NCBI GenBank assembly: GCA_016185545.1 | Contig: JACPNJ010000005.1 | Coordinates: 271,717-335,716, forward strand | Direction: 5' to 3' | Source: Candidatus Yanofskybacteria bacterium | GTDB taxonomy: Bacteria; Patescibacteriota; Minisyncoccia; 2-02-FULL-40-12; IGHO2-01-FULL-4-A | Length of the DNA stretch: 64,000 nt | Shown here: in pieces, positions 5,091 through 62,583 of the stretch | Layout: the number at the start of each line of letters is the position of its first letter | Position numbering within the stretch: position 1 is the stretch's first letter | Translations under genes and position numbers: made by a program | Notes under the pieces: generated by a model | The model's database searches: none | Told to the model about the DNA's origin: nothing | Seen by the model: only the letters and a program-made list of their open reading frames with translations

Positions 5091-5540
5091 ATGAAAAAAT
5101 CCACGAAAATAGCGGTTTCAATGGCCATTTTTGGCGTGCTGGCAATGACCGCGATTGTCGCTTATCCCGGCAATAACGCCAAGGCGGCAGGTATTGACGG
5201 CATTTCCAGAGCCGCCCACGGCAATGTTTCGCGACTAGGCGAACTGCTTGTGTTAGACGGATTGTTTGCCAATGATTTCAACAGCATAGATAATCGTATC
5301 GACGGTCCTTCACGCTTGGGCGAACTGATCGTCTTAGACGGATTGTTCGGCTTCGGCAACGGGCTTAACGGCAACGGCACGAGAAACGTTTCGCGACTCG
5401 GCGAACTGCTTGTCTTAGACGGATTGTTCGGCAATAGTATAGACGGAGTAACCGGTAGCAGAATCGGCGGCGCCTCTCGCTTAGGCGAACTGTTAGTCTT
5501 AGACGGATTGTTCGGCTTCGGCAACGGATTTATCAGGTAA
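5091..5540 (+). CDS. Secreted repeat protein with 4x SRLGELLVLDGLFG motif
   Basis: Strong signal peptide (MKKSTKIAVSMAIFGVLAMTAIVA). Four ~28-aa repeats, visible also as DNA direct repeats. Confidence 0.5.
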   Translation: MKKSTKIAVSMAIFGVLAMTAIVAYPGNNAKAAGIDGISRAAHGNVSRLGELLVLDGLFANDFNSIDNRIDGPSRLGELIVLDGLFGFGNGLNGNGTRNVSRLGELLVLDGLFGNSIDGVTGSRIGGASRLGELLVLDGLFGFGNGFIR

Positions 5541-5601
5541 GTCCGGCAGCAAGAGAGAATTGCAAGTTTCTCTCTTGTGCCGGATTTGTCATTATACCAT
5601 C

Positions 5602-5991
5602 ATGAGCGTGAGAAATTTCTTTTCTACCCACAACAAATTATTACTTATTATATTATTTGGTTTGGCTCTGTTCGGCACGGGTTATTTTGCGTTGGCACGT
5701 ACTTCCAGCATTATTACTATAGTCAATGAGCGGCCTGCCCACCCCGTCCTAGACGGGAGGGCGGGCAGAGGCAGGATCGGTGGCAACTCCGGCGCCGAAC
5801 CCTACTGCTATAATGGCGATAACAATCTTGGCCAACTGATAGTTCTTGACAGCTTATTCGGCACAGATTACAAAAAAGCCGACGGCAGTGACAGGTTCTC
5901 GCGCCTGGAACGGCTGATTGTTCTAGACAGATTGTTCTCTAATCAATCTAATTCCGGCGGACGTTCCTGTCTGTCACCTCTTGAGGAGTAA
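5602..5991 (+). CDS. Secreted/membrane-anchored paralog with 2x LGQLIVLDSLFG / RLERLIVLDRLF repeats
   Basis: Hydrophobic N-terminus, same repeat motif as the 5091 gene. Start set to the internal Met. Confidence 0.45.
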   Translation: MSVRNFFSTHNKLLLIILFGLALFGTGYFALARTSSIITIVNERPAHPVLDGRAGRGRIGGNSGAEPYCYNGDNNLGQLIVLDSLFGTDYKKADGSDRFSRLERLIVLDRLFSNQSNSGGRSCLSPLEE

Positions 5992-17202: not shown

Positions 17203-17373
17203 TTTGTTTTATTTTAATTAAGCTGATGATTCTCTGTTTTGCCTGCCCCGTAGGGTCGTGAAGCGACTCCTTCGGGGGTTTTCAACTCAGAAAATACACC
17301 ATTCTTAATTATTAATTGATCTCGCACGAGATCGCGAGGACTCGCCCCGAGTCTCTATCTCGTGTGGGACTGA

Positions 17374-34946: not shown

Positions 34947-36764
34947 TTATTTTTTTAGCATTTCCAAAAATACCTTCTGTGGTATTTCCACTTTACCCCG
35001 CTCCTTCATTTTAGCTTTCCCGCGTTTTTGTTTTTCTAGCAACTTCTTTTTGCGGGTCACATCGCCGCCATACAGGTAACCCGTAACATCTTTGCGCAAA
35101 GCGGGTATGGTTTCTCGGGCAATGATTTTACCTCCGATAGCCGCCTGTAAAGATACCGCAAACCATTGCCGCGGCAATATCTTTTTCAATTTTTCAACAA
35201 TCCGCCTGCCTTCATGATATGTCCGCTCGCGCGGCACAATTTTGGAAAACGGCTCAACTTTTTCCTCGGCGACTAAAATATCCAGCCGTACCAAATCATA
35301 AACTTGATAACGAGCCGGCTCATAGCTCATGGAGGCGTAGCCGGAACTGACACTTTTGAGCCGGTCGTAAAAGTCTGTAATTATTTCTGACAATGGCACA
35401 AGGTACTTCAATATCGCCACCTCCTTGCTTAAATAATCGGTCGATCTATACTGGCTCCGCAATTCCGACAAAAGTTTCATTAATTGTCCCATGTACGATA
35501 CTGGGCTTAAAATTTCCAAATCAACCATCGGCTCTTCTATACTCTCTATTATGCCGGGGTCGGGTAGAGCGGCGGCTGAACGCACCTTTAGAACCTCACT
35601 TTTTTTTGTAGCAACATGATATTCCACAGATGGTGTGGAAACAATAAGAGCAAGGCCGAATTCACGACGCAAACGTTCGCTGACTATTTCAATATGCAAC
35701 ATGCCGAGAAATCCCAGACGAAAACCGCGCCCTAACGCCGGCGAAGATTCGGGTTCATAAACCAGCGAAGCATCGGTAAGCTTCAATTTGCCAAGTGCGT
35801 CTTTAAGTACGTCGTAATCATCGCTAGATTCAGGATAAAAACTGGCAAACACCATAGGTTTTGGCTCTTGATAACCGGATAGAGGTTTTAAAATTTCATT
35901 TTGAGATTTGAGATTTGAGATTTGAGATTTAAATATCGTATCGCCGACTCTAATTTGCCCGGGATCTTTTAGACCCGTAGCAATATAACCAATCTCACCG
36001 GCAGACAACATCGATTCCTTTTTAAGTTGCGGCGCAAAATAGCCGACTTCCACAACATCAGAAGTGGCCCTTGAGGCAAATAACTTAATTTTCTCTCCCG
36101 CTTTTATGGAACCGCCGAAAACTCTGACAAAAGCAATAACACCCTTATAAATATCAAAGGCTGAGTCAAAAATCAGAGCACGAAATGATGAGGGTTTAGG
36201 GTCTAGGGTATAGGGTATAGACGGCGTAATTTTGGCAATTACTGCTTCAAGAACTTGTTCCACTCCTTCGCCGGTTTTGGCGGAAATTTTTAAAATATCC
36301 TCGCGCGGCATGGTTAATAAATTTACCAGTTCTTCCTCCGCTTCGGCGACTCGCGCATTCGGCAAATCAATTTTGTTAATCACTGGAATAATTGCCAGCC
36401 CTTGTTTCTGCGCCAAATGTAAATTCGCCAGTGTCTGCGCCTGCACGCCCTTAGTCGCATCCACCAACAAAATCACTCCCTCAACAGCGGCAAGTGAACG
36501 GGAAACTTCATAAGAGAAATCCACATGACCCGGAGTATCAATAAGATTAAGCGTGTAACGGTTGGCATTTAGGGCGTAGGACATTCTAACAGGCTGGAGT
36601 TTAATGGTAATCCCCCGCTCGCGTTCCAGTTCCATCTGGTCTAAAAACTGCTCGTGCATCTTCCGTTTCTCAACCGTTCCAGTTAATTCCAAAAACCTGT
36701 CGGCTAAAGTTGACTTGCCGTGATCAATGTGGGCAACGATACAGAAATTGCGGATATTTTGCAT
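34947..36764 (-). CDS. lepA: Elongation factor 4
   Basis: AHIDHGKSTL G1 motif, DTPGH, NKID, LepA C-terminal domain. Contains in-frame tandem-heptamer stretches. Confidence 0.9.
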   Translation of the reverse strand: MQNIRNFCIVAHIDHGKSTLADRFLELTGTVEKRKMHEQFLDQMELERERGITIKLQPVRMSYALNANRYTLNLIDTPGHVDFSYEVSRSLAAVEGVILLVDATKGVQAQTLANLHLAQKQGLAIIPVINKIDLPNARVAEAEEELVNLLTMPREDILKISAKTGEGVEQVLEAVIAKITPSIPYTLDPKPSSFRALIFDSAFDIYKGVIAFVRVFGGSIKAGEKIKLFASRATSDVVEVGYFAPQLKKESMLSAGEIGYIATGLKDPGQIRVGDTIFKSQISNLKSQNEILKPLSGYQEPKPMVFASFYPESSDDYDVLKDALGKLKLTDASLVYEPESSPALGRGFRLGFLGMLHIEIVSERLRREFGLALIVSTPSVEYHVATKKSEVLKVRSAAALPDPGIIESIEEPMVDLEILSPVSYMGQLMKLLSELRSQYRSTDYLSKEVAILKYLVPLSEIITDFYDRLKSVSSGYASMSYEPARYQVYDLVRLDILVAEEKVEPFSKIVPRERTYHEGRRIVEKLKKILPRQWFAVSLQAAIGGKIIARETIPALRKDVTGYLYGGDVTRKKKLLEKQKRGKAKMKERGKVEIPQKVFLEMLKK

Positions 36765-36797
36765 AAACCACAAAACCTGCCTCTCGAAAGGCAGGTT

Positions 36798-37087: not shown

Positions 37088-39766
37088 TTAGTCTAACAAA
37101 ATATCAATCTCCCGGTCAACCGACAAATCAGAATTTAAAATTAAACTGTTGCCGATAGTCTGTAACTCGGCACTTTTGTTTAGCATGCTTTTACCATCAG
37201 GTAACTTGAAACTGAAACCAATCTGATCTTGGCCGGTACCGGATTGTTTCTGCCACAATAGACTATATTTCCCATCAGCAACAGAAGTCGGCGTTTTGTA
37301 TTTTAGTGTAACTGATTTGGTCTGTTTTGGTTTTGTAATCAGCCAAAAACCAAAAACTGTCTTGCCCGATTCCTCAAATACATCCACGCCGGCAAACGGC
37401 TTTTTGATACTGGATTCTATTCGTTCTAGTTCTTGATCACGCTTAAACCCAAAATCCTCATGGTCAATAAGGGGTCTGAAATCGGTTATTGATTGACCCT
37501 GGATACTTTCCAAAACCGATCCCTTGGGAACATAAACTTTAATATACGCCGAGTTGTCACGGTTATAAAACCCGTATTTGGAATCGCCGCCATTATGCAC
37601 CCTATTAACAGTAAGCACATGGTTTAATGTTCCGCCATCACCGATACTGGTTTCCAAATCCATTAGGTTTTCGGTCACAAAATCAGTTTTTGAACCCTTT
37701 ATATTAGAAAACACGACTTGCAGGTAATCTTCAAGTATTTGCTCAATCTCTCCGCCTAATCCGTTTTTAACCGCGACTTTTTCTAAATTAGAGTTTTCGA
37801 AGTATGCCAGAATGTGCTTTTGCTCCGCGGCCTCTGAAATAATTCTAAAAATCGCAAGCCATTGGTCTTTATTCTGTCGGGCAAGTCGTTCAAAAAACTT
37901 AGGCTGGAGGTCGGAAAGTATTTGTTTGGGAGCGGAACGGTTGGCTTCGTACTCAACCTCATTCTGGATTTTTGTCAGAAAATTACCGGCATCAAGCGTT
38001 AAACCGTATTCCGGCATTTCAATCGGACCGATAATATCTAAAATCTTGGCAATAACATCCGGCGTAATTGTAAGCACACCGTCCACTTCCGGCCCTCCGT
38101 CCAATTTGTAAAACTCCGTCACCTTGCGCGCCGAGGTGGGAAAATCGGCAAACCAAGCGGCATCGCGCATTCCCCAGTTTGGCGTGATATGCTGAAGCGG
38201 AATCGGAGGAATGATCTTTTCTTTCAAATTGGCATCAGCTCGGTAAACATCCTCAACAAAAATTTTCTTAAGAGAGCCGTTTTCAAAGGTTATCAGACCA
38301 TATGTGCCGGGAAAACCGCCAGTCGGCCTTAATTCGCTGTTATTTTGAAGCAAAACTAAATAGGTTTTAATGCCATCAGTACCAACAAACTTAAGCAGAA
38401 AGTCCGAATAATCAACCGCTTCGCCTATATATTTTTGAAACTCCGGAATTTTTTCTTTGAAATTCAAAAAAAGCTTTTGTTTATCAGCCGGAATAGCGGA
38501 AGCGTCAATATCGGCAAGCAAACTATCAGCATTTTTTATGTTCTTTTCGGCAAAAACCAAAATATCCTTGAACTCAGTAAGAAGTTTAGACAGTGAAAGA
38601 GATTGCGATGCACCCGAAGGGTCTAAAAATACAAGTAAGTTGGTTTTATAAAGAGTCCCGAATGCCAGCGATAAATTCTCCCCCGCCTTTGATAAATTTT
38701 GGCCCGCTTCAACCAGATTACTCGCCGCCTTGACCTTGTTAAGGCCGGGCAGATTACCGAAAAAAGAAAGAAAAGACGCGCCAAGCTGGCTAAGCGTTCC
38801 GGACGCCCTGTTAAGATCATCGTATGCCAGGGCAAAACTGTCAGCCGCTTTGATAAAATTAAAATTTTCCAGTTCTTGTTTGGCTTTTTCAAAATTCGCC
38901 ACAGCATTACTACCATTTTGAATAATGTTACTACGAGCCCAAATGCTCCGATGCCTGATTACGATACCGATTGATAGACTGGCCACAGCAATAGTTAGCA
39001 CCCAAACCATCGGCCGGCGATTAAATCTGAACCACGATAGCCACTTGGTTCCACTCTTGAAAGGGGTTTTTCTGGATTTTGCGTCTGAAAAACGCTTGCC
39101 ACTTTCAAAGATGGGATTGTGTGATAGCGACTGACGACCTTTCTGCAAATTTTCAAGCCATATTTCTATTTCGCGCGAAGCGGGTGAATGAACTCCATAG
39201 TGAAAATCAGAATGGCCTTCGGCATTACCCGCGTCTGCGACACGGGTAGCTTCAATTTCTACTGCGGGGAAAGTAAACTTGGTAAGTTCGGCGACCGGTT
39301 CGGCAGGTAATGTGCTGGGAAATAGTTCGGTCCCGGCGTTTTTTTCGGTTATCTTCCTACGATAAGCAATTTTAGATCTGGACTTTGTATTAAAAACCTC
39401 ATAAACGCGGCCACCAACGCGAGTTAATTCAACCGCAGCATCAATCGGTTCTGAAATAGTTTTTTCAAACTCCTCTAATATCGATTCTTTGCTGAATGCT
39501 GTTAATTCATATTTTTGAGAAAAGTCTGGACGTTGGGGCAATTTAACTATTAACTCTTCCCAATAGTCGTCATCTGACAGGGTTTCGGGTTTTTCAATAG
39601 TTGTTTTTGGTTTGCCAAGCCTTAGTTTAGGTTTATCCAAACTGGGGCTGGATTTATTCTCCCGCCGTAAATCAAGTTCGTTTTTAATTTGTTCCAAAAC
39701 TAAAGCTGCCGACTTACCTATCGGTCTGACATCAAACATCGCCAACAAGATATTTCTCTTTGGCAT
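37088..39766 (-). CDS. Large membrane protein with ~620-aa extracytoplasmic domain (DUF4012-like?)
   Basis: Single TM near aa 250; located in an envelope glycosylation cluster. Confidence 0.45.
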   Translation of the reverse strand: MPKRNILLAMFDVRPIGKSAALVLEQIKNELDLRRENKSSPSLDKPKLRLGKPKTTIEKPETLSDDDYWEELIVKLPQRPDFSQKYELTAFSKESILEEFEKTISEPIDAAVELTRVGGRVYEVFNTKSRSKIAYRRKITEKNAGTELFPSTLPAEPVAELTKFTFPAVEIEATRVADAGNAEGHSDFHYGVHSPASREIEIWLENLQKGRQSLSHNPIFESGKRFSDAKSRKTPFKSGTKWLSWFRFNRRPMVWVLTIAVASLSIGIVIRHRSIWARSNIIQNGSNAVANFEKAKQELENFNFIKAADSFALAYDDLNRASGTLSQLGASFLSFFGNLPGLNKVKAASNLVEAGQNLSKAGENLSLAFGTLYKTNLLVFLDPSGASQSLSLSKLLTEFKDILVFAEKNIKNADSLLADIDASAIPADKQKLFLNFKEKIPEFQKYIGEAVDYSDFLLKFVGTDGIKTYLVLLQNNSELRPTGGFPGTYGLITFENGSLKKIFVEDVYRADANLKEKIIPPIPLQHITPNWGMRDAAWFADFPTSARKVTEFYKLDGGPEVDGVLTITPDVIAKILDIIGPIEMPEYGLTLDAGNFLTKIQNEVEYEANRSAPKQILSDLQPKFFERLARQNKDQWLAIFRIISEAAEQKHILAYFENSNLEKVAVKNGLGGEIEQILEDYLQVVFSNIKGSKTDFVTENLMDLETSIGDGGTLNHVLTVNRVHNGGDSKYGFYNRDNSAYIKVYVPKGSVLESIQGQSITDFRPLIDHEDFGFKRDQELERIESSIKKPFAGVDVFEESGKTVFGFWLITKPKQTKSVTLKYKTPTSVADGKYSLLWQKQSGTGQDQIGFSFKLPDGKSMLNKSAELQTIGNSLILNSDLSVDREIDILLD

Positions 39767-41480: not shown

Positions 41481-41586
41481 CCCGTTAGAAGTGGCAATAG
41501 CGACATATAAACTAAACTTACAATCGCTGTTTTAACTTTTATTAAATAAAATTTGATTCGCGAACCCGTTAGGGCTACTTCTAACG
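41481..41586 (-). promoter_or_regulatory. CCCGTTAG leader element abutting the GT4 start codon
   Basis: cccgttagaagtggc at the ATG; distal aacccgttagggctacttctaacg. Confidence 0.6.
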
Positions 41587-41664
41587 AAATTCGTTGCTCA
41601 AAGCGTACCAAATTTATAAGCAAAAACAAAACCGGTTTACTGACTGACGAAATATTAATATTTA

Positions 41665-43086: not shown

Positions 43087-43121
43087 GCCACTAAAAATCG
43101 CGTGTTGCGCGATTTTTAGTG

Positions 43122-43670
43122 GCTTGGTAAATCTATAAGCCGAATTCTGTCACCCTTCGCTCGGCTATGCCGAGCTTCGGACGGACAAGTATTTGTGCTT
43201 GTCCTCCGTAGCTTTAGCGTAGGATGGATGATTATTTATCTGGGCCAATTATCGCTAATTAGCTCTAGCGTACGAACTTTTCGGGGTATCGCATTGCTGT
43301 GATACGACGCTGTACTTGCACTAGGCAGGGTTTAGCGCGACACCCATGTTGCCATGGGGCGTTCCCGTTCGGGAACTTTTCACCCGCAGTCCTCGGACTT
43401 GCGCCAAAGGAGCTCGGAATAGTTTCTGTGCCACTTTCCCTAAGCTTCGATTAGTAGCTCTTCTCTTAAGAGGAAGAAGTACCAACCTTATACTCGGTGG
43501 CCGTTAGCCACTGCCTTGCTGACGCAATCACTAATCACTAACCTCCAATCACCAATTTTGTTAGTAATTGACGACTAGCAGTTGGTGATTGCGTCAGCGG
43601 TGTTCGGACTTTCCTCTACCTTGCTCTTTCCAAAGAAAGGGCTGGGCAGAAATCACCCGATTTACCAAGC
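43122..43670 (-). ncRNA. rnpB: RNase P RNA (bacterial), unusually long (~550 nt)
   Basis: P1 pairing GCUUGGUAAAUC / GAUUUACCAAGC. P4 strands GAGGAAAGUCCGAACACC and ACAGAAUUCGGCUUA. GGGUGAAAAG J11/12-like segment. Long extra helix at 43500-43605. Confidence 0.7.
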
Positions 43671-45110: not shown

Positions 45111-46367
45111 CTAATTTTTATAATAATCAAGAACCTCTAACCCAGGCAGCCTGTTGCCGGCTAAAAATTCTAACATTGCCCCTCCGCCGGTTGAGACGAA
45201 ACTATAGCGGTCAAGTAAATCCAGCTTGTCTACTGCGGCAACAGTATCCCCGCCGCCAACAATAGATTTCGCCGCCGAAGCCACTGCTTTGGCAATGTCG
45301 CGGGTACCCTCGGCAAAAACTTCCACTTCTGATAATCCCATCGGCCCGTTCCAGATTACCATCTTGGCCGTTTTTATAATTTCGGCGTAATGTTTTGCCG
45401 TCTCCGGTCCGATATCAAGAATCAGATGACTGGAATCAATATTTTCTATCGGAGAAGTCTCTGCGCCAGAATCGCCAGTTTTATCTTCTGAAATCAAAAC
45501 ATCTTCCGGCAATATTATTTTCTCACTTTCCACGTCAAGCAAAAATTCATTATCAACCATTGACGCACCAACATTTATTCCCCGAGCCTTAAAAAAATTA
45601 TTGGCAACCGCACCGCCAATCAGGATTTTTTCCGCTTTATCCAAGAAATTTTTGATTACCGGCAATTTGGTTGAGATTTTAGCGCCACCGAGAACTAAAA
45701 CCTTACCGTCAACCGGCGCCTCCAGCGCCCGTCTAAGACTTTCGGTTTCTTTTTTTATTAAAAATCCGGCAAAAGAGGGTAGGTGTCTGGTTATTGCCAC
45801 AACGGATGCATGATTGCGATGCATTACCGCAAAAGCGTCATTTACATAATAGTCAAAACCGTTCGACAAGCTCACGGCGAGTTCCTCATTATTTTGAATC
45901 TCGCGCGAATTTTGGCGAATATTATCCAGAAGTAAAAGTGGGCCAACTCCAAAAAGTTTATCAACCCCGTACAAGGCAGAGGCACGCTGCGTGCCCTCGC
46001 GGCCTCGTTCGGGGTTAATTCCGTCCAATTCAGAATGCGGCACCAATGTAAGTGTTTGCCCCAAAATTTCACCCAACTCTTCAACAATCGGGCCAAAACT
46101 TGCCCCCGAAACATCATGCCCCAAGTGGCCCACCAATAAAACTTTAGCACCGAAGCTAATCAAATAATCAATCGTCTCCTTTTGCGCTTTGATTCTGAAA
46201 TTATCACCGATCTTGGTTAGCGATTGGCGACCTGCCCCGTAGGGAGACAAAGTCTCTCCTTCAGGGTTGGTAGTTGGTGATTGCGTCAGCGGCACGTCAA
46301 AATCAACCCGCAACAGGATTTTTTTGTTATTAAGCTCTTCTTTTTTTAATTCGTTAATATATTTCAT
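45111..46367 (-). CDS. pgk: Phosphoglycerate kinase
   Basis: RVDFDVPL, GHLG, GGGD and hinge motifs. Carries an in-frame ~20-aa insertion near the N-terminus. Confidence 0.9.
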   Translation of the reverse strand: MKYINELKKEELNNKKILLRVDFDVPLTQSPTTNPEGETLSPYGAGRQSLTKIGDNFRIKAQKETIDYLISFGAKVLLVGHLGHDVSGASFGPIVEELGEILGQTLTLVPHSELDGINPERGREGTQRASALYGVDKLFGVGPLLLLDNIRQNSREIQNNEELAVSLSNGFDYYVNDAFAVMHRNHASVVAITRHLPSFAGFLIKKETESLRRALEAPVDGKVLVLGGAKISTKLPVIKNFLDKAEKILIGGAVANNFFKARGINVGASMVDNEFLLDVESEKIILPEDVLISEDKTGDSGAETSPIENIDSSHLILDIGPETAKHYAEIIKTAKMVIWNGPMGLSEVEVFAEGTRDIAKAVASAAKSIVGGGDTVAAVDKLDLLDRYSFVSTGGGAMLEFLAGNRLPGLEVLDYYKN

Positions 46368-46515
46368 CCCGTTAGAAGTAGCTGCTTGCCCCGCAATTCG
46401 CCAGAGGCGATGGTTCGGGGCTGCGCAGTTTTACACACAAGTTGCGGCCGCACAACAAGCTTAAGATTATTTACAAATTATATTTGCAAACCCGTTAGGG
46501 CTACTTCTAACGGGA
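46368..46515 (-). promoter_or_regulatory. CCCGTTAG leader element filling the tpiA-pgk spacer, abutting the pgk start codon
   Basis: cccgttagaagtagc at the ATG. Distal cccgttagggctacttctaacggga can pair either locally or with the ATG-proximal copy (15-bp perfect). Inner hairpin gccccg...cggggc. Confidence 0.6.
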
Positions 46516-46519
46516 TTAA

Positions 46520-47326
46520 TCACAAACTAGAAACAATTTTTAAAACATCTCCAAATTCTTTTTTTCTCAAACTGGCGCCACCGATAACTGCGCCGAAGAT
46601 TTCCGGATATTTGAGGAAATCAGCAACATTTTTTTTGTTAATTGACCCTCCGTATAAAAACCTGAAACCTGAAACCTGCCCGGCCTTCGCAGCCGAAGCT
46701 ACTTCGGCGGAGTAGGCAAGCCCGAAACCTAATAACTCTTGAATAATTTTTATCGCTTCAAGCGTATTTTCGGGAGTATCTGGCTCCGCACCAGGTGTTG
46801 TGCTTATCGCCCAAACCGGTTCATAAGTAATCAAAACTTTGCCAACTTGATCGGCGGTTAAACCGGCTAAATCGGCGGTGAGTTGGGTTTCAAGGACTTG
46901 CTTGCGATCATCGCCACGGTTACGTTCACCCACCAAAAGCACCGGCGTAACTCCGGCTCCAAGCGCTGCCCCAATTTTCTTGTTTATTACCTCATCCGTT
47001 TCGCCAATTTTGTATCGCCTATCCGAGTGGCCGACAAGCACATGGGTTACACCAAAGTTCTTGAGCATATCAATCGATACTTCTCCCGTGTACGGCCCTG
47101 ATTTTTCCCAAAATAAGTCCTGACCACCCAAACTGATAGATGATGACTGACGGTTGACGGCTGGAACTTGCCTTGCGAGTTCTTCAAGGTAAACAAATGG
47201 CGGACAAATCACTACTTTCAGATTCTGATGCTTTGACGCTTCAGCAACCGAAAATTTAAAAAGTTCCAGGGCTTCCTCAAGATTAACGGGATTCATTTTC
47301 CAATTGGCAATAATAATCTTATTCAT
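46520..47326 (-). CDS. tpiA: Triosephosphate isomerase
   Basis: ANWKMN, GHSDRR, EPVWAI, YGGS motifs. In-frame palindromic insertion before YGGS. Confidence 0.9.
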   Translation of the reverse strand: MNKIIIANWKMNPVNLEEALELFKFSVAEASKHQNLKVVICPPFVYLEELARQVPAVNRQSSSISLGGQDLFWEKSGPYTGEVSIDMLKNFGVTHVLVGHSDRRYKIGETDEVINKKIGAALGAGVTPVLLVGERNRGDDRKQVLETQLTADLAGLTADQVGKVLITYEPVWAISTTPGAEPDTPENTLEAIKIIQELLGFGLAYSAEVASAAKAGQVSGFRFLYGGSINKKNVADFLKYPEIFGAVIGGASLRKKEFGDVLKIVSSL

Positions 47327-47945: not shown

Positions 47946-48970
47946 TCCGTAGGATTAACTTCAATTGGATCTGTTTCACGCAATAATTTAGCCGCTTCAT
48001 CCGGATCAATAATATTCACGTCAATCCCGCTGCCCAACTCAAAAGCCCCGAATGTGGAAATCTTGGGTAAAACTTCGACGTGCCAAGTATAAAAATCGTG
48101 TACGTCTATCACTGTGTCTTCAAGCGGAGCAGTATGTACGAAAAAATTATAATCAGGATTTTTGAGAGCTAGCTGTATTTTTTTAAGAATCAACAGTAAA
48201 ATTTCGCCAAGATACACAAGCTGCTCCTCTGGCATTTTCTCAAAATGGGCATGACTTTCCTGCGGAAAAATTCTCACTTCGTAAGACGTCTTGGAAACGA
48301 AAGGACAAAAAGCGATAAAATACTTGTTTTCATAGACAATCCTTTTTCTCTCTTTCCTTTCCCAGTCAATCATCACATTATATATTCTTTTTTTATATTC
48401 ACGATAAAATTTTTCAGAACCGTTAATACTTCTTTTAACATCGGGAGGCAAGACTGGAATTGATATAATCTGCGAATGGGGATGCGACATGCTGGCTCCG
48501 GCGCGAGAACCATGATTATGGAAAATTAAAGCGTATTTACCATATGCGCCGCCGTCAGTCATAGTTCGGTATCTTTCCTGATAAACCTTTAATGCTTCAG
48601 CCAACTCTTCTTTGGAAAACTCGTGCAAAAATCTGTCATGATTCCTGAATATGACAACTTCATGCCTGCCCTTGGCTTCTTGAACATTAAAGGGGCCGAT
48701 AGACTCCGGCAGACTGGCTTTGCCTTCCAAAACTGCCGGGTATTTATTCTTTACCACCTTTATTGCCCAATCATTACGTTCTTTATTTAAGTATTCAGCC
48801 ACCACAATATTGCCGTATTTTTCCGGGTTCTCAAAGGGGCACTTGCTCTTAGGCAATGTTTTAGTTTTCGGTTTTTCTTGTTTAACCTGTTCCGGCCTTT
48901 GGGCTCGGCCCGTAGCAAAAAGCACCCATTCGCCGGAAACCAGGTCTTCTCTAAACTCGTTAACCACCAC
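47942..48970 (-). CDS. Galactose-1-phosphate uridylyltransferase-like (GalT/HIT superfamily)
   Basis: HNHGSRAGASMSHPHSQI HxHxQ-type active site, two half-barrel halves. Confidence 0.6.
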   Translation of the reverse strand: MVVNEFREDLVSGEWVLFATGRAQRPEQVKQEKPKTKTLPKSKCPFENPEKYGNIVVAEYLNKERNDWAIKVVKNKYPAVLEGKASLPESIGPFNVQEAKGRHEVVIFRNHDRFLHEFSKEELAEALKVYQERYRTMTDGGAYGKYALIFHNHGSRAGASMSHPHSQIISIPVLPPDVKRSINGSEKFYREYKKRIYNVMIDWERKERKRIVYENKYFIAFCPFVSKTSYEVRIFPQESHAHFEKMPEEQLVYLGEILLLILKKIQLALKNPDYNFFVHTAPLEDTVIDVHDFYTWHVEVLPKISTFGAFELGSGIDVNIIDPDEAAKLLRETDPIEVNPTE

Positions 48971-49031
48971 TAGTCACTAGCCACTAGCCACTAGCCACTA
49001 GTAATTTAACTAGTCGCTAGGCACTAGTCCG
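48971..49031. repeat. Heptamer-arm spacer element (cactagc)n
   Basis: cactagtcactagccactagccactagccactag + taatttaa + ctagtcgctaggcactagtccgctaggcac. Confidence 0.85.
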
Positions 49032-49793
49032 CTAGGCACTATACTTGTAAGTCCACAGATTCCACCTTACCTGCAATACCTCAAACAGCATTTTAATCAT
49101 CCCGCTTAATTTGACCTTACTTTCCGTATCATTCACCCATCGTATCGGCGCTTCTTCTATTTTAAAACCCAGTTTGAGGGCAATCGCCAAAATCTCCACG
49201 TCAAACGCCCAACGGAAAATTGTCTGTTTTTGAAATACCGCCTCGGTGGCTTTGCGTGAAAAACATTTGAATCCTGCCTGTGAATCTTTCACGCCAAGCG
49301 GTACGAGAGTATGCACGATCAGACGAAAAATTCCACCGAGAAAATCTCTGATCCATGGCTGCTTAACCGCTATATCAGCCCCGGCAATTCTACGGGAACC
49401 AATCACAATATCAGATCCTTGTGAAAAATATGGAAGAAAATTCTCAATTTGATCAATGGTTGTAGAATTATCCGCGTCCATAAATAAGCGGTAATCCCCC
49501 TGCGCCTCCAACATTCCCCGCCGCACCGCCCAGCCCTTGCCGTGATTTTCTTTGTCATCAATTATTTTCAGATTTGGGATTTGCCCGGCCTTCGTAGCCG
49601 AAGCTGCTACTTCATCGGGGTAAGTGGATTTGAGATTTGAAACAACGCCAACGGTATTGTCCTTTGATCCGTCACTAACCACAATGATTTCATAATCATA
49701 AGATTGCCGTGACAAATACTCGTGCACGCTCAAAAGCGTCTTTTCAATGCGTTTTTCCTCATTATAGGCAGGAATTATTACAGAAATATACAT
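49032..49793 (-). CDS. Family 2 glycosyltransferase (dolichol-phosphate mannose synthase-like)
   Basis: VIIPAYNEE, IIVVSDGS, DADN motifs. In-frame insertion PDEVAASATKAGQIP. Confidence 0.8.
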   Translation of the reverse strand: MYISVIIPAYNEEKRIEKTLLSVHEYLSRQSYDYEIIVVSDGSKDNTVGVVSNLKSTYPDEVAASATKAGQIPNLKIIDDKENHGKGWAVRRGMLEAQGDYRLFMDADNSTTIDQIENFLPYFSQGSDIVIGSRRIAGADIAVKQPWIRDFLGGIFRLIVHTLVPLGVKDSQAGFKCFSRKATEAVFQKQTIFRWAFDVEILAIALKLGFKIEEAPIRWVNDTESKVKLSGMIKMLFEVLQVRWNLWTYKYSA

Positions 49794-50585: not shown

Positions 50586-50672
50586 CCATTCAGGTTATAG
50601 GTTATAGATTATAGGTTATAGCATTCTTCCATTATTTTTAACTATCACCTGTCACCTATTAGCTATCACCTC
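50586..50672. repeat. Heptamer-arm spacer element (ggttata)n ... (ctatcacc)n between map and adk
   Basis: caggttataggttatagattataggttatagc + loop + ctatcacctgtcacctattagctatcacc. Confidence 0.85.
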
Positions 50673-51341
50673 TCATAGATGTTTCATAATGTCTTCCTGT
50701 ACCTTCCCGATTGGCTGCTCGCCTTCAATAGTTATGGCATCATAGTCATTTTTTTTCAAAAAATCCAGCACCGGTTTGGTGTCTTTTAAAAATACGCGAT
50801 ATCTTTCCCTGATGATTTCCGGTTTGTCCAACGTCCTTGTGATTATCGGCGAACCATCTTCCGGACAGATGACAAGGTCACGGTACTGGGGAAAACCGGG
50901 TATGGGGTGCCTGCTTTTTTCACAAATCCTGCGGCTAGAATTTCGCCTAATTGATTCATTTTCGCTTAGCTTAATGTAAAAAATTTTTATGTTTTCTTTG
51001 CCATATAATTTTTCTAATTCCGGCATTTCATTTTCCGCTTCATATAAAGTGCGTGGTGAGCCGCTAAAAACTATGCCCCTGCCGACAGAAGCCAATTCCC
51101 TGATTTTTTCCACAATCAACTTGACAATCCACGGCGGCGGAAAGAGCTCGCCCATATTATATCTTCTTTTGGCTTCAGCGACTTCGGGGTCTTTTTTAAC
51201 AAGTTCTGGGTCGTTGATTTTAACTTCTCCCAGATTAGACGTTTCAATGTGCTCCAATCCAAATTTTTTAGCAATCAATTCCGCTTGCGTCCCCTTGCCC
51301 GCTCCCGGCGGCGCAATAAAAATTATGACTTGCTTAGACAT
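50673..51341 (-). CDS. adk: Adenylate kinase
   Basis: APPGAGKGTQ P-loop, FSGSPRT, Cys-containing LID. Confidence 0.85.
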   Translation of the reverse strand: MSKQVIIFIAPPGAGKGTQAELIAKKFGLEHIETSNLGEVKINDPELVKKDPEVAEAKRRYNMGELFPPPWIVKLIVEKIRELASVGRGIVFSGSPRTLYEAENEMPELEKLYGKENIKIFYIKLSENESIRRNSSRRICEKSRHPIPGFPQYRDLVICPEDGSPIITRTLDKPEIIRERYRVFLKDTKPVLDFLKKNDYDAITIEGEQPIGKVQEDIMKHL

Positions 51342-53248: not shown

Positions 53249-53313
53249 TATTCAGGTTACAGGTTACAGGTTACAGGTTCAAAAAATTAAACCTAGCACC
53301 TGACACCTGACAC
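53249..53313. repeat. Heptamer-arm palindromic spacer element (caggtta)n ... (cctgaca)n, copy A
   Basis: (caggtta)3 + ttcaaaaaattaaacc + tagcacctgacacctgacacctag. Near-identical to 57614-57692. Confidence 0.9.
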
Positions 53314-53820
53314 CTAGTTTTTGAGCTTGCTCAACGCTCCTATCGTTGCTCTTGCTATATTTATCTTATTTCCGGTTCTTTTTATAAGCTTTGCGGAAAT
53401 ATTTTCAATACCAGAAAGTTTAGCCACTACACGTACCGCTCCTCCAGCCTTAACTCCGTTGCCAACTGGCGCGGGCTTAAGTAAAACCACCGCGCTGCCG
53501 TATTTATATTCAATTATGTGTGGTATTGTGCCGTTTTTTATCGGCACTGTGACCATGTTTTTACGTGCTTGATGTGTCGCTTTTTGCATTGACTGAGCCA
53601 CGTCATGACCTTGAGCAACTCCAACTCCTACCCTGCCCTTACCATCACCTATAGCAATAGTGGCACGGAAACTGAATCGCTTGCCACCCTTGGTTACACG
53701 AGTTACCCTAGCAATATCCAAAACTTTGGAATCAAATTCCGATTTTTCTTTGGGTGTCCCCCGATCTCTGCCGAAGCCTCTTCTGCCTCCGGTTTTTTTA
53801 TTATTTTTTTGTTCCTCCAT
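53314..53820 (-). CDS. rpsE: 30S ribosomal protein S5
   Basis: S5 dsRBD plus C-terminal domain. Confidence 0.9.
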   Translation of the reverse strand: MEEQKNNKKTGGRRGFGRDRGTPKEKSEFDSKVLDIARVTRVTKGGKRFSFRATIAIGDGKGRVGVGVAQGHDVAQSMQKATHQARKNMVTVPIKNGTIPHIIEYKYGSAVVLLKPAPVGNGVKAGGAVRVVAKLSGIENISAKLIKRTGNKINIARATIGALSKLKN

Positions 53821-54398: not shown

Positions 54399-54470
54399 GC
54401 TAAAGTTTCTAGTTTCTAGTTTTTAGTTTCTAGTGAATTTTACTAGCAACTAGAACCTAGAACCTAGCAA
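54399..54470. repeat. Heptamer-arm spacer element (tagtttc)4 ... (ctagaac)n
   Basis: Tandem 7-mers followed by an imperfectly complementary tandem arm; loop gtgaatttta. Confidence 0.9.
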
Positions 54471-55025
54471 CTATCCTGCCGTTGCTACCGCCTTCTTGCC
54501 CGCCTTTCTTAAAATAACTTCGTTCTTGTATTTAATGCCGGAACCCTTATACGGTTCCGGCGGTTTAGCCGCCCTTATTAAAGCCGCGACATGACCGACT
54601 TTTTCTTTATCCGGTCCAGTTACTTTTATAACATTTTTCTCCACCCGGAAAGTCACTCCTTCAGGCGCTTTTACCGAAACTGGATTGGTATAACCCAGAC
54701 TTAATTCAATGGAATCTTCCTTTACTTGAGCCTTGAAACCCACTCCATTAAACTCCAGTACCTTTTCAAAACCGCCAAAAACACCCTTTATCATTGTTGC
54801 CGCCAGCGCCCTGCCCAATCCCCAAAATTTAGAAGTTTCTTTGCTGGCATCAATGCCTTGTTTTAATCCAATAACAACGGCACCATCTTCCACTCTGGCA
54901 ATTAAAACATCCGGAAGAATTTTTTCCAGTTCGCCCTTGGGACCCTTGGCGTGAATTTTTTGACCGTCAATTTCCACTTCCACACCATCCGGAATTTTGA
55001 TTAGTTTTTTACCTATTCTAGACAT
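54471..55025 (-). CDS. rplF: 50S ribosomal protein L6
   Basis: MSRIGKKLIKIP; two L6 repeats. Confidence 0.9.
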   Translation of the reverse strand: MSRIGKKLIKIPDGVEVEIDGQKIHAKGPKGELEKILPDVLIARVEDGAVVIGLKQGIDASKETSKFWGLGRALAATMIKGVFGGFEKVLEFNGVGFKAQVKEDSIELSLGYTNPVSVKAPEGVTFRVEKNVIKVTGPDKEKVGHVAALIRAAKPPEPYKGSGIKYKNEVILRKAGKKAVATAG

Positions 55026-55179
55026 GCAAATTTGTCCAATCGGACAAGCGTAATCGCGTAGTCCGATTGGGTAACAGATTTAGCACCCCGCCCTCTAAGC
55101 ACTTTAATAGCTTAGAGGGCGGGGTAACTAACTGTTACCATGCTCGGCTCGCTTTGCTCGCCTGCGCGTGGACAGCTAT
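55026..55179. repeat. GC-rich multi-hairpin spacer element, copy 1 (paralog at 59432-59583)
   Basis: ccaatcggac..gtccgattgg; accccgccctctaagc...gcttagagggcggggt; ggtaactaactgttacc; atgctcggctcgc tail. Confidence 0.9.
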
Positions 55180-57613: not shown

Positions 57614-57692
57614 TTAATCAGGTTACAGGTTACAGGTTACAGGTTACAGGTTAAAAAATTAAACCTAGCACCTGACACCCGAAACCTGACAC
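57614..57692. repeat. Heptamer-arm palindromic spacer element, copy B
   Basis: (caggtta)4 + taaaaaattaaacc + tagcacctgacacccgaaacctgacacc. Confidence 0.9.
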
Positions 57693-57941
57693 CTATACTT
57701 TTCCTATGATTTGCCATCTCTTGTCTTTCGACATCGGCTTTGTTTCCCGAATAACAACTTTATCCCCAATATGATACTCCCCCTTCTCATCATGCGCCTT
57801 AAATCGTTTGGTAATTTTGTAATATTTCTTGTATTTTGGGTGCTTCTTTAATCTTATAACCGAAACCACCACAGTTTTGGTCATTTTGTCCGACACTACG
57901 ATTCCCTTTAATTGTCTTATCTTTTTGATCAATTGTTTCAT
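57693..57941 (-). CDS. rpsQ: 30S ribosomal protein S17
   Basis: S17 OB fold; GIVVSDKMTKT. Confidence 0.9.
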   Translation of the reverse strand: MKQLIKKIRQLKGIVVSDKMTKTVVVSVIRLKKHPKYKKYYKITKRFKAHDEKGEYHIGDKVVIRETKPMSKDKRWQIIGKV

Positions 57942-58711: not shown

Positions 58712-58798
58712 ACTAGCTGATAGCTGATAGCTGATAGCTGATAGCTTTTTGAAGTCAAGCTATAACCCATCACCTAAAAACTATAACCTTTGCGATTG
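58712..58798. repeat. Heptamer-arm spacer element (tagctga)4 ...
   Basis: ctagctgatagctgatagctgatagctgatagc + loop + gctataacc...ctataacc. Confidence 0.85.
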
Positions 58799-59431
58799 TT
58801 AAAATCGCAAACCTTTATATATCCATACCTTAATTCCTACCGTTCCGTATGTCGTGTATGCGGTTGATTTTGCAAAATCTATGTCCGCCCTCAGTGTCTG
58901 CAACGGCAAGCTTCCTTGTTCAAGATGCTCCGTTCTCGCTATGTCATTGCCGTCCAGCCGTCCACCAACTGTAACTTTAGCGCCTTTTACATCACGGTTG
59001 GATATGATTTTAGCAAGTGATTGCTTTAACACGCGACGGTAAGGTAATCTTTTTTCTATCTGCTCAGCCATTTGTTCAGCAACTATTCTGGCTGAAGTTT
59101 CCGGATTTTTAAACTCCTGTATATCCAACCGAATCGCTGTTTTTCTCTTAATAAGTTTGATAACTTCGGCTTTTAAATCTTCGATGCCCGTACCGCCGCG
59201 GCCTATAATCAAACCCGGCCTTGCGGTGCGTATGGTAATGGCTAGAACATCCGGACTTCTTTCAATCTCTATATCATCTACACTCATGTTTTTGAGTTTT
59301 TTATCTAGAAATTTTCTGATTTCAACATCTTCTTTTAAAAATTCCGGATAATTTCTAACCTTAAACCAGCGGGATTTCCAATCCTTGTTTATCGAAACTC
59401 TTAATGATGTTGGGGAAATTTTCTGTCCCAT
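58799..59431 (-). CDS. rpsC: 30S ribosomal protein S3
   Basis: MGQKISPTSLR; KH domain. Confidence 0.9.
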   Translation of the reverse strand: MGQKISPTSLRVSINKDWKSRWFKVRNYPEFLKEDVEIRKFLDKKLKNMSVDDIEIERSPDVLAITIRTARPGLIIGRGGTGIEDLKAEVIKLIKRKTAIRLDIQEFKNPETSARIVAEQMAEQIEKRLPYRRVLKQSLAKIISNRDVKGAKVTVGGRLDGNDIARTEHLEQGSLPLQTLRADIDFAKSTAYTTYGTVGIKVWIYKGLRF

Positions 59432-59583
59432 GCAAATTTGTCCAATCGGACAAGCGTAATCGCGTAGTCCGATTGGGTAACAGATTTAGCACCCCGCCCT
59501 CTATGCACTTTAATAGCTTAGAGGGCGGGGTAACTAACTGTTACCGTACTCGTTCGCGTTGCTCACTGCGCTCGGACATTTAA
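59432..59583. repeat. GC-rich multi-hairpin spacer element, copy 2
   Basis: ~110 nt nearly identical to 55026-55135 (caaatttgtccaatcggacaagcgtaatcgcgtagtccgattgggtaacagatttagcaccccgccctct...). Confidence 0.9.
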
Positions 59584-60102: not shown

Positions 60103-60173
60103 TTATTCAGGTTACAGGTTACAGGTTACAGGTTACAGTTTTTAACTGTCCACTGATCACTGGAAACTGGTCA
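60103..60173. repeat. Heptamer-arm spacer element sharing the (caggtta)3 left arm with a different right arm
   Basis: caggttacaggttacaggttacagtttttaactgtccactgatcactggaaactggtcac. Confidence 0.85.
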
Positions 60174-60512
60174 CTACTTTTTCTCTGGTTCCGCCTTTGC
60201 CGCTTGTGCCGCTTCAATCTCTTTTTGTTTGGCTGCGGCTTCTATTTCTTTTTGCATTCGTCCGCCGTGACGACTGAATCTTCTCGTCGGTGAAAACTCT
60301 CCCAACTTATGCCCAACCATATCTTCCGTCACAAAAACCGGTAAATGCGTCTTTCCATTATGCACCCCGAAAGTAAATCCGACCATTTGCGGTGTTATTG
60401 TTGATGCCCGCGCCCATGTCTTAATAATCGTTTTATCTCCAACCCTAAGCCGGCCGAGTTTTTTCAGCAACTTTTCATCCACATATACGCCTTTTTTAAT
60501 TGATCTGCTCAT
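60174..60512 (-). CDS. rpsS: 30S ribosomal protein S19 with C-terminal extension
   Basis: S19 core [11 protein letters not shown]; EIEAA repeat tail. Confidence 0.9.
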
Positions 60513-61850: not shown

Positions 61851-61923
61851 GGTCAGTTTCTAGTTTACAGCTTACAGTTTACAGTGAATTCTTAACTGAA
61901 AACTGACAACTGTAAACTGAAAA
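61851..61923. repeat. Heptamer-arm spacer element (tttacag)n ... (ctgNaaa)n
   Basis: gtttctagtttacagcttacagtttacagtgaattcttaactgaaaactgacaactgtaaactgaaaac. Confidence 0.9.
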
Positions 61924-62583
61924 CTATAATCGAAAGGTTCTTTCGATTATAGGCACCGCATCTTTTAACAAAATCAGATATTTCTTTGTTAGCACATCTT
62001 TGATATTCAAACTATTCGCCGACGTTATTTCTATAAACGACAAATTATTTACCGCCCGCGCAATGTTTTTATCTTGGGCTGGAGCCACAAGCAAAATAGA
62101 GTTTTTTTTCTTTTTTGTCTCTCTGTAACCATCCAGTTTGGACGATAACATCTTGATTGAATTATTGGCAGCTTTTGTTTTGGGAGTTTCAAACCGTAAT
62201 TCGTCCAAAACAAGCAGTTCTTTATCATTTGCCTTACTGGATAGAGCCATAAATAAAGCCTTGCGCTTCATTTTTTTATTGATTTTCTTCTCAAAATTTC
62301 TTTCCTTGGTCGGTCCGAATGCCACACCCCCGTGTCTCCATATTGGCGAACGTATTGAGGCGTGCCTAGCCCGACCAGTTCCCTTCTGCCGCCATGGCTT
62401 CCGACCGCCACCACGCACCTCGCTACGATCCTTGGCGTGAGCAATCACCTGCCTTGAATTAGCCGCCTGCGCGTCAATCACTTGTTTAACTAATTCGGCG
62501 TTCATTGCCACACCAAAAATTTTGTCTGGCAAATCAACATCGCCAATTATTTCGCCTGATTGATTGAAAAGTTTTGTTTTCAC
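61924..62583 (-). CDS. rplD: 50S ribosomal protein L4
   Basis: L4 family; PWRQKGTGRAR. Confidence 0.9.
   Translation of the reverse strand: MKTKLFNQSGEIIGDVDLPDKIFGVAMNAELVKQVIDAQAANSRQVIAHAKDRSEVRGGGRKPWRQKGTGRARHASIRSPIWRHGGVAFGPTKERNFEKKINKKMKRKALFMALSSKANDKELLVLDELRFETPKTKAANNSIKMLSSKLDGYRETKKKKNSILLVAPAQDKNIARAVNNLSFIEITSANSLNIKDVLTKKYLILLKDAVPIIERTFRL

Follow-up and report, generated by a model that had tools for sequence, protein, structure and literature searches.

Introduction

Why would a triosephosphate isomerase (TIM, gene tpiA) and a family 2 glycosyltransferase (GT2), two unrelated proteins, carry homologous loops rich in alanine, serine, lysine and glycine? Both genes lie in a 64,000-nucleotide stretch of DNA, here called the window, from Candidatus Yanofskybacteria bacterium (GenBank assembly GCA_016185545.1, contig JACPNJ010000005.1, forward-strand positions 271,717 to 335,716). 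An earlier note, written from the letters alone, had proposed that the loops arose from one palindromic DNA element present in both genes. Our results favor this proposal in its essentials. On the evidence of sequence comparison, a single family of elements, 39 or 42 nucleotides long, is inserted in frame into the two genes, and the loops are homologous because both genes carry it. We further consider that the element is probably a very small, non-autonomous mobile hairpin, pasted at both sites.

Results

Two host genes and their copies

Both open reading frames (ORFs) are on the minus strand. The tpiA gene (46520..47326) encodes 268 amino acids and matches TIM structures in the PDB down to E 2e-43; an identical public protein, named triosephosphate isomerase and assigned to Candidatus Yanofskybacteria, is found on two contigs (NCBI, Logan). 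The GT2 gene (49032..49793) encodes a 253-residue, dolichyl-phosphate glucosyl/mannosyl-transferase-like protein (Pfam PF00535; nearest to dolichyl-phosphate mannose/glucose synthase) that matches PDB 5mlz at E 4e-15, with a 15-residue gap facing the insert, and was recovered from four contigs of independent NCBI and Logan assemblies, likewise under the name Candidatus Yanofskybacteria. Since each protein is found on independent NCBI and Logan contigs, neither is a one-off assembly artefact.

The 22-mer CCCGGCCTTCGYAGCCGAAGCT has two exact matches in the 64 kb, at 46679-46700 and 49584-49605, both on the plus strand, and none in dinucleotide-preserving shuffles of the window (0/100). A covariance model (R1), built from element copies found outside the window, scored the tpiA unit (46679-46717) at 66 bits (E 1e-14) and the GT2 unit (49584-49625) at 47 bits (E 9e-10). 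A scan of the 64-kb window with filters off found no further copy, all other scores being 19 bits or less. Exact matches, shuffles and model scores thus bear out the claim that the same core is present at both sites. In a pairwise DNA alignment the likeness spans about 40 nucleotides, after which the flanks part; the copies are identical at 33 of 39 positions, with one 3-nt indel, and share a run of 25 positions interrupted by a single C/T difference.

Copy 1, in tpiA (46679..46717, plus strand), is the 39-nt short variant CCCGGCCTTCGCAGCCGAAGCTACTTCGGCGGAGTAGGC, identified by exact pattern match and by the covariance model. It equals the family consensus throughout, its sole irregularity being a C/A mismatch at a covarying Y/R pair (see below), and the minus, coding strand is translated as AYSAEVASAAKAG, the 13 TIM residues 204-216 (A204-G216). 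Copy 2, in the GT2 gene (49584..49625, plus strand; identified in the same two ways), is a decayed unit of 42 nt, CCCGGCCTTCGTAGCCGAAGCTGCTACTTCATCGGGGTAAGT, with an intact 5' half and five substitutions in the 3' half, and is translated as the 14 residues TYPDEVAASATKAG. Reading frame and orientation are identical for the two copies. Inserts of 22 residues in TIM and 15 in GT2, as given in the earlier note, are too large, the element itself encoding 13 and 14; the TIM residues GF...QVSGFRF, also counted as insert, come from a heptamer array that orthologues share.

Tandem heptamers do flank both cores, as had been claimed. To the left of copy 1 lies (AAACCTG)x3 (46658..46678, plus strand; TRF period 7, 3.0 copies, 100% match), read on the coding strand as (CAGGTTT)n and translated as QVSGFRF just before LYGGS. 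The remainder of the array to the right, AAGCCCG AAACCT (46718..46730, plus strand), encodes GFG(L) and has two substitutions against AAACCTG. Copy 2 has GATTTGR-type units on both sides: AGATTTG GGATTTG on the left (49570..49583, plus strand; QIPNLK on the coding strand) and GGATTTGAGATTTGAA on the right (49626..49641, plus strand; SNLKS on the coding strand), the latter found by period-7 detection.

Empty and filled sites

Orthologues, to which the earlier note had pointed for signs that the segment might be ancestral, speak for insertion. The 13-residue TIM segment is absent from 31 of 31 aligned orthologues (52-74% identity), with a single clean gap opposite AYSAEVASAAKAG, and the GT2 insert is absent from 28 of 29. 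At the insert spot many TIM orthologues carry a peptide with a period of seven residues (e.g. GFRFQVSGFRF, TRNYKLETRNY or SKFKIQNSKF), and these peptides are translated heptamer arrays.

The most informative relative, locus L118, is fully syntenic with the window across map, GT2, galT, a VTT-domain gene, tpiA and pgk. Its tpiA site, which reads GGTTTCAGGTTTCAGGTTTCAGGTTTCAGGTTT, is empty, as is that of L120: in both, (GGTTTCA)x4.7 coding for GFRFQVSGFRF stands directly before LYGGS. The window gene has this array with exactly 39 nt added where two units meet, together with two substitutions in the neighbouring unit. The GT2 sites of L118 and L243 are likewise empty and hold an uninterrupted (TCAAATC)n, coding for SNLKSQIPNLK in L118; the window gene equals that array plus 42 nt at a unit junction. 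With orthologues lacking the insert and empty sites that differ by exactly 39 or 42 nt, the shared loop can be put down to one inserted DNA element, as proposed. The heptamers, by contrast, had been taken for arms of the element; since the empty sites hold an intact array, they are instead its pre-existing target. Filled and empty array sites have equal numbers of heptamer units, and no target duplication was seen. Our comparison of sites thus shows, at the level of sequence, precise and duplication-free insertion into heptamer arrays that were already inside tpiA and the GT2 gene.

Presence and absence of the element also vary among relatives, as the GT2 gene shows. The site of L243 (82% nucleotide identity) is empty, while that of L242 (GCA_030650355.1; 81%) holds, at the very junction used in the window, a 39-nt copy that matches the consensus perfectly; the window copy differs from it by five substitutions and an in-frame triplet. 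This intact copy means that the junction either is a recurrent target, hit twice, or was refreshed by copy correction; the element is dynamic in both cases. The tpiA copy is young, given that it matches the family consensus, and the GT2 copy is old and decaying under a constraint that preserves the frame.

The TIM alignment yielded some further observations on the array region. In the relatives (e.g. L118:3001-3768) the native end of helix 6 and start of strand 7 have given way to the heptamer peptide (GFRFQVSGFRF, TRNYKLETRNY and others), without net gain in length against PDB TIMs; the distance from EPxW to YGGS is 43 residues in both, so the array replaces native sequence and does not add to it. 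The heptamer at this spot differs between lineages, and six orthologues (P0031, P0033, P0040, P0041, P0045, P0050) carry unrelated short inserts elsewhere.

The element and its fold

The earlier note had asked for the core to be sought elsewhere and saw in its absence a reason for doubt; hundreds of copies are present in other genomes and metagenomes. More than 117 genome loci (one genome per species) match a 20-mer, where roughly four chance matches would be expected for a 19-base pattern in 596 Gb, and the full unit is present in 94 of the 117 genome loci listed. At least 120 metagenome contigs match exactly a pattern with 36 specified bases. Genome and metagenome matches together gave 201 unique contexts, and the counts of contexts and hosts in what follows are among the matches listed.

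The unit can be written as Y-CCGGCCTTCG-Y-AGCCGAAGC-(GGC)-T-R-CTTCGGCGGAGTAGGC, where the optional triplet at the hairpin tip is of GGC type (NNN). Its length is 39 or 42 nt with one exception among the 201 contexts, in 200 of which a pyrimidine precedes CCGG. The same string of 38 or 41 nt recurs across phyla and varies at only 1-5 apical positions. Its ends, YCCGG... and ...GTAGGC, form no inverted repeat with each other beyond the GCC/GGC base of the stem, and the flanks are heterogeneous: the base before Y is G in 99 contexts, T in 70, A in 27 and C in 4, and GGC is followed by T, A, C or G.

On the forward strand the unit folds into a 4-nt 5' foot (YCCG) followed by a 35-nt imperfect hairpin, with a DNA folding energy of -9.5 kcal/mol for the short variant (z -2.1) and -14.6 for the long one (z -3.2). 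The symmetric palindrome with heptamer arms of the earlier note is therefore replaced by a foot and an imperfect hairpin, the heptamers being direct and not inverted repeats. Within this larger conserved hairpin the motif GYAG stands directly 5' of an apical stem of 7-8 bp, GCCGAAG(C)/(G)CTTCGGC, or of 6-8 bp if delimited as CCGAAG(C)/(G)CTTCGG. Rarer, diverged copies detected with covariance model R1 carry compensatory changes in the apical stem (G-C to A-T in L035, C-G to T-A in L095, L110 and L056, A-T to T-A in L043), which show that the hairpin is maintained. The internal Y and R also covary (41 T-A pairs, more than 35 C-G and few mismatches). Pairing between them gives an alternative helix, GYAGC-UUCG-GCURC, capped on the opposite strand by a C(UUCG)G tetraloop; the data fit either helix.

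Host range

The hosts belong to about eight phyla. By record title, the classified genome loci comprise Nitrospirota (35), Planctomycetota (13), Patescibacteria (13), Alphaproteobacteria (10), Delta/Desulfobacterota (9), Binatia (3), Verrucomicrobiota (2), Armatimonadota (2) and low-GC bins labelled Gammaproteobacteria (3). None of these 90 loci is cyanobacterial. The GC content of element-bearing contigs ranges from 0.28 to 0.70.

Searches for a prior description gave no match. Against Rfam 15, six element-bearing loci had no hit over the element at E<=1, and the window had none over it at gathering score. Core 16-mers, in DNA and RNA spelling, occur in no searchable paper, and matches to 10-mers were unrelated primers; the supplements of the GTAG-REP catalogue do not contain the element sequence. 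The literature on Patescibacteria with heptamer or palindromic repeats held nothing specific.

Placement and orientation

About 144 of the 201 contexts have flanking inverted repeats, and in 98 of those 144 the flanking stem adjoins the element within 4 nt in total, which places the element at the apex of that other palindrome. An empty hairpin of this kind, ccccgtagc-tt-gctgcgggg, is found in L024, and L002 and L012 have the filled form t[E]t, where E is the element, without duplication. Heptamer arrays account for roughly twenty contexts; outside the window they include RATTTGN in Patescibacteria and ACTCCAN in Desulfobacterales. The element can itself be a host: at L114:2823-2896 and L081:946-1019 another insert, about 32 nt long, splits it at the hairpin tip, which shows recursive nesting. 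These placements show that insertion is directed by structure or by repeats, and the overall picture is one of small palindromes nested within repeats.

Neighbouring copies were co-oriented in 9 of 9 pairs. On low-GC contigs the reverse complement is on the transcribed strand in 20 cases against 7, made up of copies between co-directional genes (11 vs 3) and intragenic copies (9 vs 4). A hand tally of confirmed intragenic copies gave 12 R against 2 F, a bias that was not significant once frame-specific stop codons were allowed for (hand estimate ~0.06).

Copies inside genes

The unit is divisible into whole codons and, as oriented and read in tpiA and GT2, contains no stop codon; it is consequently translated as a surface loop of 13-14 residues rich in Ala, Ser, Lys and Gly. 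The commonest frame reads AYSAE[VA]A(A)SA[TA]KAG, and three other stop-free frames are in use too. About one quarter of the 49 copies from low-GC contigs are intragenic. None of these 49 contexts contains a gene-splitting copy, and deletion of the element never restores a broken ORF, which implies that selection keeps only harmless, read-through frames.

For the window TIM, AlphaFold2 predicts a confident TIM barrel (pLDDT 87) in which low confidence is confined to residues 202-218. The insert is placed between the helix of residues 185-202 (helix 6) and the strand of residues 223-225 (strand 7). It would thus lie on the barrel face opposite the active site, in a non-catalytic position, the face being assigned from established TIM-barrel topology rather than computed.

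Ten further host ORFs with an in-frame element were confirmed by Pfam. They encode class I aminoacyl-tRNA synthetases (aaRS) like IleRS (L010) and ValRS (L233), topoisomerase I (TopA, L020), RecG (L021), Mfd (L049), UvrC (L093), TsaD (L125), a DHH/DHHA1 phosphoesterase (L204), a sulfatase (L227) and a DDE transposase (L160). The two synthetases (L010:1118-4759 and L233:2912-5794, Patescibacteria) also have a complete His_Phos_1 (histidine-phosphatase) domain inside the catalytic domain, with Pfam E-values of 4e-30 and 2.5e-46.

Other repeats in the window

The element is one visible layer of a nested repeat ecology in a genome saturated with heptamer arrays. Most intergenic spacers between 48.9 and 62 kb hold paired arrays; in the ribosomal-protein/secY region almost every spacer has them, at 48968-49041, 50592-50675, 53251-53315, 54404-54475, 57619-57694, 58714-58791, 60106-60174 and 61862-61925. 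The paired arrays are partly complementary and fold into periodic hairpins with 5-bp helices between 2x2 loops. Of ten spacer arrays tested, seven fold better as RNA of the transcribed (minus) strand, owing to G-U pairs, and it is possible that they are terminators or stabilisers.

Arrays are found inside genes as well. The ORF of LepA/EF4 (34947-36773, minus strand) has two in frame, neither holding the core: at 35900-35932 and 36187-36220, with TTTGAGA x4.4, a unit as in the GT2 target array, giving KSQISNLKSQ, and AGGGTAT x4.3 giving IPYTLDPKP. The RNase P RNA gene (43120-43668, minus strand) is 549 nt long against the 367 positions of the Rfam model, and at 43512-43604 contains a paired heptamer-array hairpin of AATCACT-type units (RNA dG about -43). 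An arm of this hairpin, GCTGACGCAATCAC..., is the reverse complement of the flank of an insert in pgk (46265-46290), so the same array module is present in a structural RNA and in a protein gene.

The pgk gene (45111-46367, minus strand) has two more in-frame palindromic inserts, at 46206-46289 and 45963-46012, both absent from the syntenic L118. The first is a degenerate heptamer array around a GTAG-type core, CCTGCCCCGTAGGG..CCTTCAGGG, of which the intergenic spacer at 17242-17277 holds a sister copy; the second is a nested palindrome, AACCCCGTACAAGGC[...]GCCTCGTTCGGGGTT. No copy of the pgk insert cores, those of the pgk/17242 family included, was found in any fetched locus. The pgk gene of L118 (5518-6597) is itself without a 23-residue segment, DTVAAV...STGGG, that lies between two GGG motifs and is conserved in PGK; a deletion, a pseudogene or collapse of the assembly between repeated GGCGGCGGG strings could account for this gap. 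Three candidate copies of the element were rejected: 45274-45293 (15.7 bits) is native PGK sequence conserved in L118, and 38727-38749 and 6446-6463 resemble the unit at its ends alone and seem to be chance matches.

Three further repeats are present. A direct repeat of 124 nt (55023-55146 and 59429-59552), 98% identical and lying 4.4 kb apart between genes of the ribosomal-protein cluster, encloses a nearly perfect palindrome, ACCCCGCCCTCTAAGC...GCTTAGAGGGCGGGGT, and has no Rfam match. The hairpin motif AAACCCGTTAGGGCTACTTCTAACGGGATT is found at 41549-41591 and 46475-46517, with related CCCGTTAGAAGT pieces at 18666, 41475 and 46362; it stands just downstream of or around gene ends, that between pgk and tpiA included, and looks like a shared terminator-like element. 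A coding repeat with a period of 81-84 nt, unrelated to the element, has four tandem units at 5223-5519 and a fifth, 424 nt further, at 5893-5943; its copies are 65-90% identical and extend across the ORFs 5091-5540 and 5560-5991.

Discussion

We hypothesized that the element is a very small non-autonomous mobile hairpin, similar to repetitive extragenic palindromic (REP) sequences, Rickettsia palindromic elements (RPEs) and the cyanobacterial SDRs, and that it was pasted at both sites; for its movement we infer an HUH-type mode, and we hold this reading as a whole to be probable. According to it the element would move as folded single-stranded DNA, an HUH/Y1-type enzyme, either a REP-associated tyrosine transposase (RAYT) or an IS200-like one, would act in trans, resembling the situation of REP sequences, and insertion would take place into transiently single-stranded or extruded DNA such as hairpin apices and slipped heptamer repeats. 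The part of the proposal that names HUH/Y1 as the mobilising enzyme class is tentative and much less probable than the reading as a whole. It draws on analogy, namely that an architecture of foot plus hairpin is that of a TnpA_Y1 substrate. In REPs, RAYT recognises a hairpin preceded by a 5' GTAG foot, and class 3 Y1 enzymes, known from Planctomycetes, Acidobacteria and Proteobacteria, are flanked in the first two groups by hairpins with a CnGA foot (PMC6006769). Stem-loops tagged with GYAG, with stems of 6-9 bp and loops of 2-4 nt, have been reported from bacteria including the PVC phyla, some of them intragenic in repair genes (PMC3733652). The present unit likewise has GYAG directly before its apical stem, and its neighbouring copies are co-oriented.

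Several observations weigh against this reading. A phmmer search with E. coli RayT on 7,983 ORFs (1.6 Mb of element-bearing loci plus the window) returned one clear Y1 transposase, in L113, and beyond it a single weak, partial hit (L145, E 0.002); around the L113 gene stands a GTAG-REP of its own that is unrelated to the element, and the 64-kb window has no RayT-like ORF. All-against-all BLAST clustering of neighbouring ORFs showed no gene family enriched near the copies, the clusters consisting of housekeeping genes and of spurious ORFs running across the element itself. As a whole the unit has YCCG and not GTAG for a foot, GYAG being inside the larger hairpin, and across the 201 contexts no conserved target tetranucleotide stands beside the insertions, unlike in IS200/IS605. 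Near-identity across phyla is at odds with REP/RAYT systems, which are described as lineage-specific and vertically inherited, and IMG/VR viral contigs, INPHARED phages and PLSDB plasmids yielded no copy that would indicate a horizontal vector. Orientation had no association with GC skew (74 vs 95 loci), and hence gives no replication signal. Finally, window, L242 and L243 are about equidistant in the GT2 gene (81-82% nucleotide identity), so its junction fits recurrent insertion and ancestral insertion with precise loss alike, and a target duplication one heptamer long is not strictly separable inside a heptamer array, the insertions into hairpin tips showing none.

A second possibility, which we regard as considerably less probable, is a phylum-agnostic, horizontally spreading "nano-transposon" whose integration is directed by DNA secondary structure (a hairpin apex or slipped repeat junction) and not by sequence, through a mechanism unlike that of any characterised transposase family. 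Host replication or repair activity on the folded unit might then be at work, for example, or an unrecognised enzyme shared by uncultivated groundwater and sediment lineages. If this were true, such a unit could colonise even the essential genes and structural RNAs of ultra-small genomes.

Spread could also proceed with no transposase at all, by recombination or template-switching during replication between repeats that share flanks, such that a filled array or palindrome converts an empty one and composites multiply as a whole. The host sites are indeed other repeats (heptamer arrays, multi-copy palindromes) that offer short homology on both sides, many Nitrospirales copies share long flanks, so that composite units amplify, and no enzyme was found near the copies. 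The intact L242 copy at the junction where the window has a decayed one could likewise reflect copy correction. Homology, however, fails to explain the first entry into each context: the 201 contexts include arrays of unrelated units (AAACCTG, GATTTGR, ACTCCAN) and dozens of unrelated palindromes across phyla. The junctions are moreover exact to the nucleotide, with an invariant starting pyrimidine, and we find template-switching improbable as a full account.

Improbable to a somewhat greater degree is that the unit is a functional structural module of RNA or DNA (a stabiliser, part of a terminator or a protein-binding site) whose intragenic copies are tolerated by-products. Strong sequence constraint across phyla would be easier to explain by function, and the bias of the reverse complement toward the transcribed strand (11 vs 3 intergenic and 9 vs 4 intragenic, low-GC), the C(UUCG)G tetraloop closed by the Y/R helix of that strand and the occurrence of G-U-compatible variants (T...G) point the same way. 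Yet no Rfam family matches, and copies take either orientation, lie inside as well as outside coding sequence and are nested in palindromes, with no fixed position relative to genes. A function leaves unexplained how a 39-nt string came to lie precisely inside orthologous codons, and it is in any case compatible with mobility.

Reverse transcriptases of the group II intron, diversity-generating retroelement and retron types are common in Patescibacteria and groundwater taxa, and could in principle copy the unit via RNA before its integration at structured DNA. The support is indirect (clean insertion without duplication, a stable RNA hairpin, an orientation bias with respect to transcription); no reverse transcriptase gene is enriched near the copies, there is no poly-A or priming signature, the variants lack an adenine-specific mutation pattern, and we judge this route very unlikely. 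An ancestral or convergent low-complexity Ala/Ser-rich loop, or a chimeric assembly, can practically be dismissed: HMMER does align AYSAEVAS to native YGAEAASV of PDB TIM, and native AVASAAK of PGK does give a weak covariance-model match, but convergence does not account for 33 of 39 shared DNA positions, orthologues without the segment and empty sites that differ by exactly one unit, nor an artefact for agreement between independent NCBI and Logan assemblies and hundreds of copies in contigs of GC 0.28-0.70. Three other candidates were rejected outright. Splicing or intron-like removal would call for a larger unit, and all intragenic copies keep the frame and lack stops; spacer integration of the CRISPR type does not fit an insert of constant sequence; and an attC/integron site would need an integrase context, of which there is none.

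Under the mobile-hairpin reading, which we prefer, the findings have a wider bearing. The smallest mobile-looking repeats, REPs and SDRs, are usually treated as lineage-bound. A near-identical 39-nt unit from Patescibacteria to Nitrospira and Planctomycetes implies frequent horizontal spread or a very strict recognition constraint, and its clean, structure-directed insertion offers a concrete substrate for finding the enzyme responsible. Length variation of core proteins in candidate-phyla bacteria can stem from nested selfish DNA, heptamer arrays first and hairpins after, and not from adaptive loops, which bears on how "CPR-specific insertions" (of the candidate phyla radiation), alignments and phylogenies are read. 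The peptide AYSAEVASATKAG and its variants can serve as a marker for such insertions in proteomes and metaproteomes.

Comparison with known systems

The closest structural parallel is to REP/REPIN-RAYT systems. Both are imperfect palindromes of 20-40 nt whose foot is short and unpaired, and both are multi-copy, often nested or paired with other palindromes, and present in PVC phyla. In either case GYAG directly precedes a stem of 6-8 bp that carries a loop of 3-4 nt, but in the present unit this GYAG is enclosed in a larger conserved hairpin and its Y covaries with a downstream R, so that the parallel is partial. REPs are mostly intergenic with some inside ORFs related to DNA repair and tRNA, as are TopA, RecG, Mfd, UvrC, aaRS and TsaD here. 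The present unit differs in being larger than the GYAG stem-loop, to which it adds the outer arms GCCT/AGGC and the YCCG foot, in being near-invariant across at least eight phyla instead of lineage-specific, and in entering hairpin tips or heptamer junctions. No cognate RAYT was found among the loci searched, the lone RAYT nearby having another REP.

IS200/IS605-derived palindrome-associated elements and the "REPtron-like" hairpins of class 3 TnpA_Y1 (PMC6006769) resemble it in having a hairpin with a 5' tetranucleotide foot and no target duplication, and the single-stranded-DNA logic of IS200/IS605 would explain a preference for extruded or single-stranded targets. The present unit, in contrast, is one hairpin without distinct left and right ends or a conserved target tetranucleotide, its foot is YCCG and not CnGA or GTAG, and no linked Y1 gene was found. 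From classical miniature inverted-repeat transposable elements it is set apart by the absence of terminal inverted repeats and of a target-site duplication at hairpin tips and array junctions.

With RPEs, of which PMC3733652 gives a summary, the likeness is one of behavior: a selfish palindrome in frame in essential genes of a reduced-genome bacterium, translated as a surface peptide compatible with the fold. RPEs, with the sequence families RPE-1 to RPE-8, are reportedly about 100-150 bp long and confined to Rickettsia, and to our knowledge they have not been reported to target heptamer arrays. The present unit, at 39/42 nt, cross-phylum and in hosts outside the Rickettsiales, is distinguished from them by size and host, not by sequence comparison.

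The cyanobacterial repeats SDR4-6 are said to be nested in heptamer repeats, palindromes and mini-transposons, with filled and empty sites compared. We know of no SDR description that includes in-frame colonisation of conserved protein genes or identity across phyla. SDR5 inserts precisely into the palindrome HIP1 (PMC4390886). SDRs and the present element are alike as hairpin units of less than 50 nt that insert precisely and without duplication inside other repeats, with no mobilising machinery named for either; SDRs, with the families SDR1-8, measure 21-27 nt and belong to Nostocales, so that length and host, not sequence, set the 39/42-nt unit apart. In conclusion, the element departs from REP, RPE and SDR in size, host range, foot, enzyme and lineage specificity, while in function it resembles RPEs and intragenic REPs, and it inserts in the manner of SDRs.

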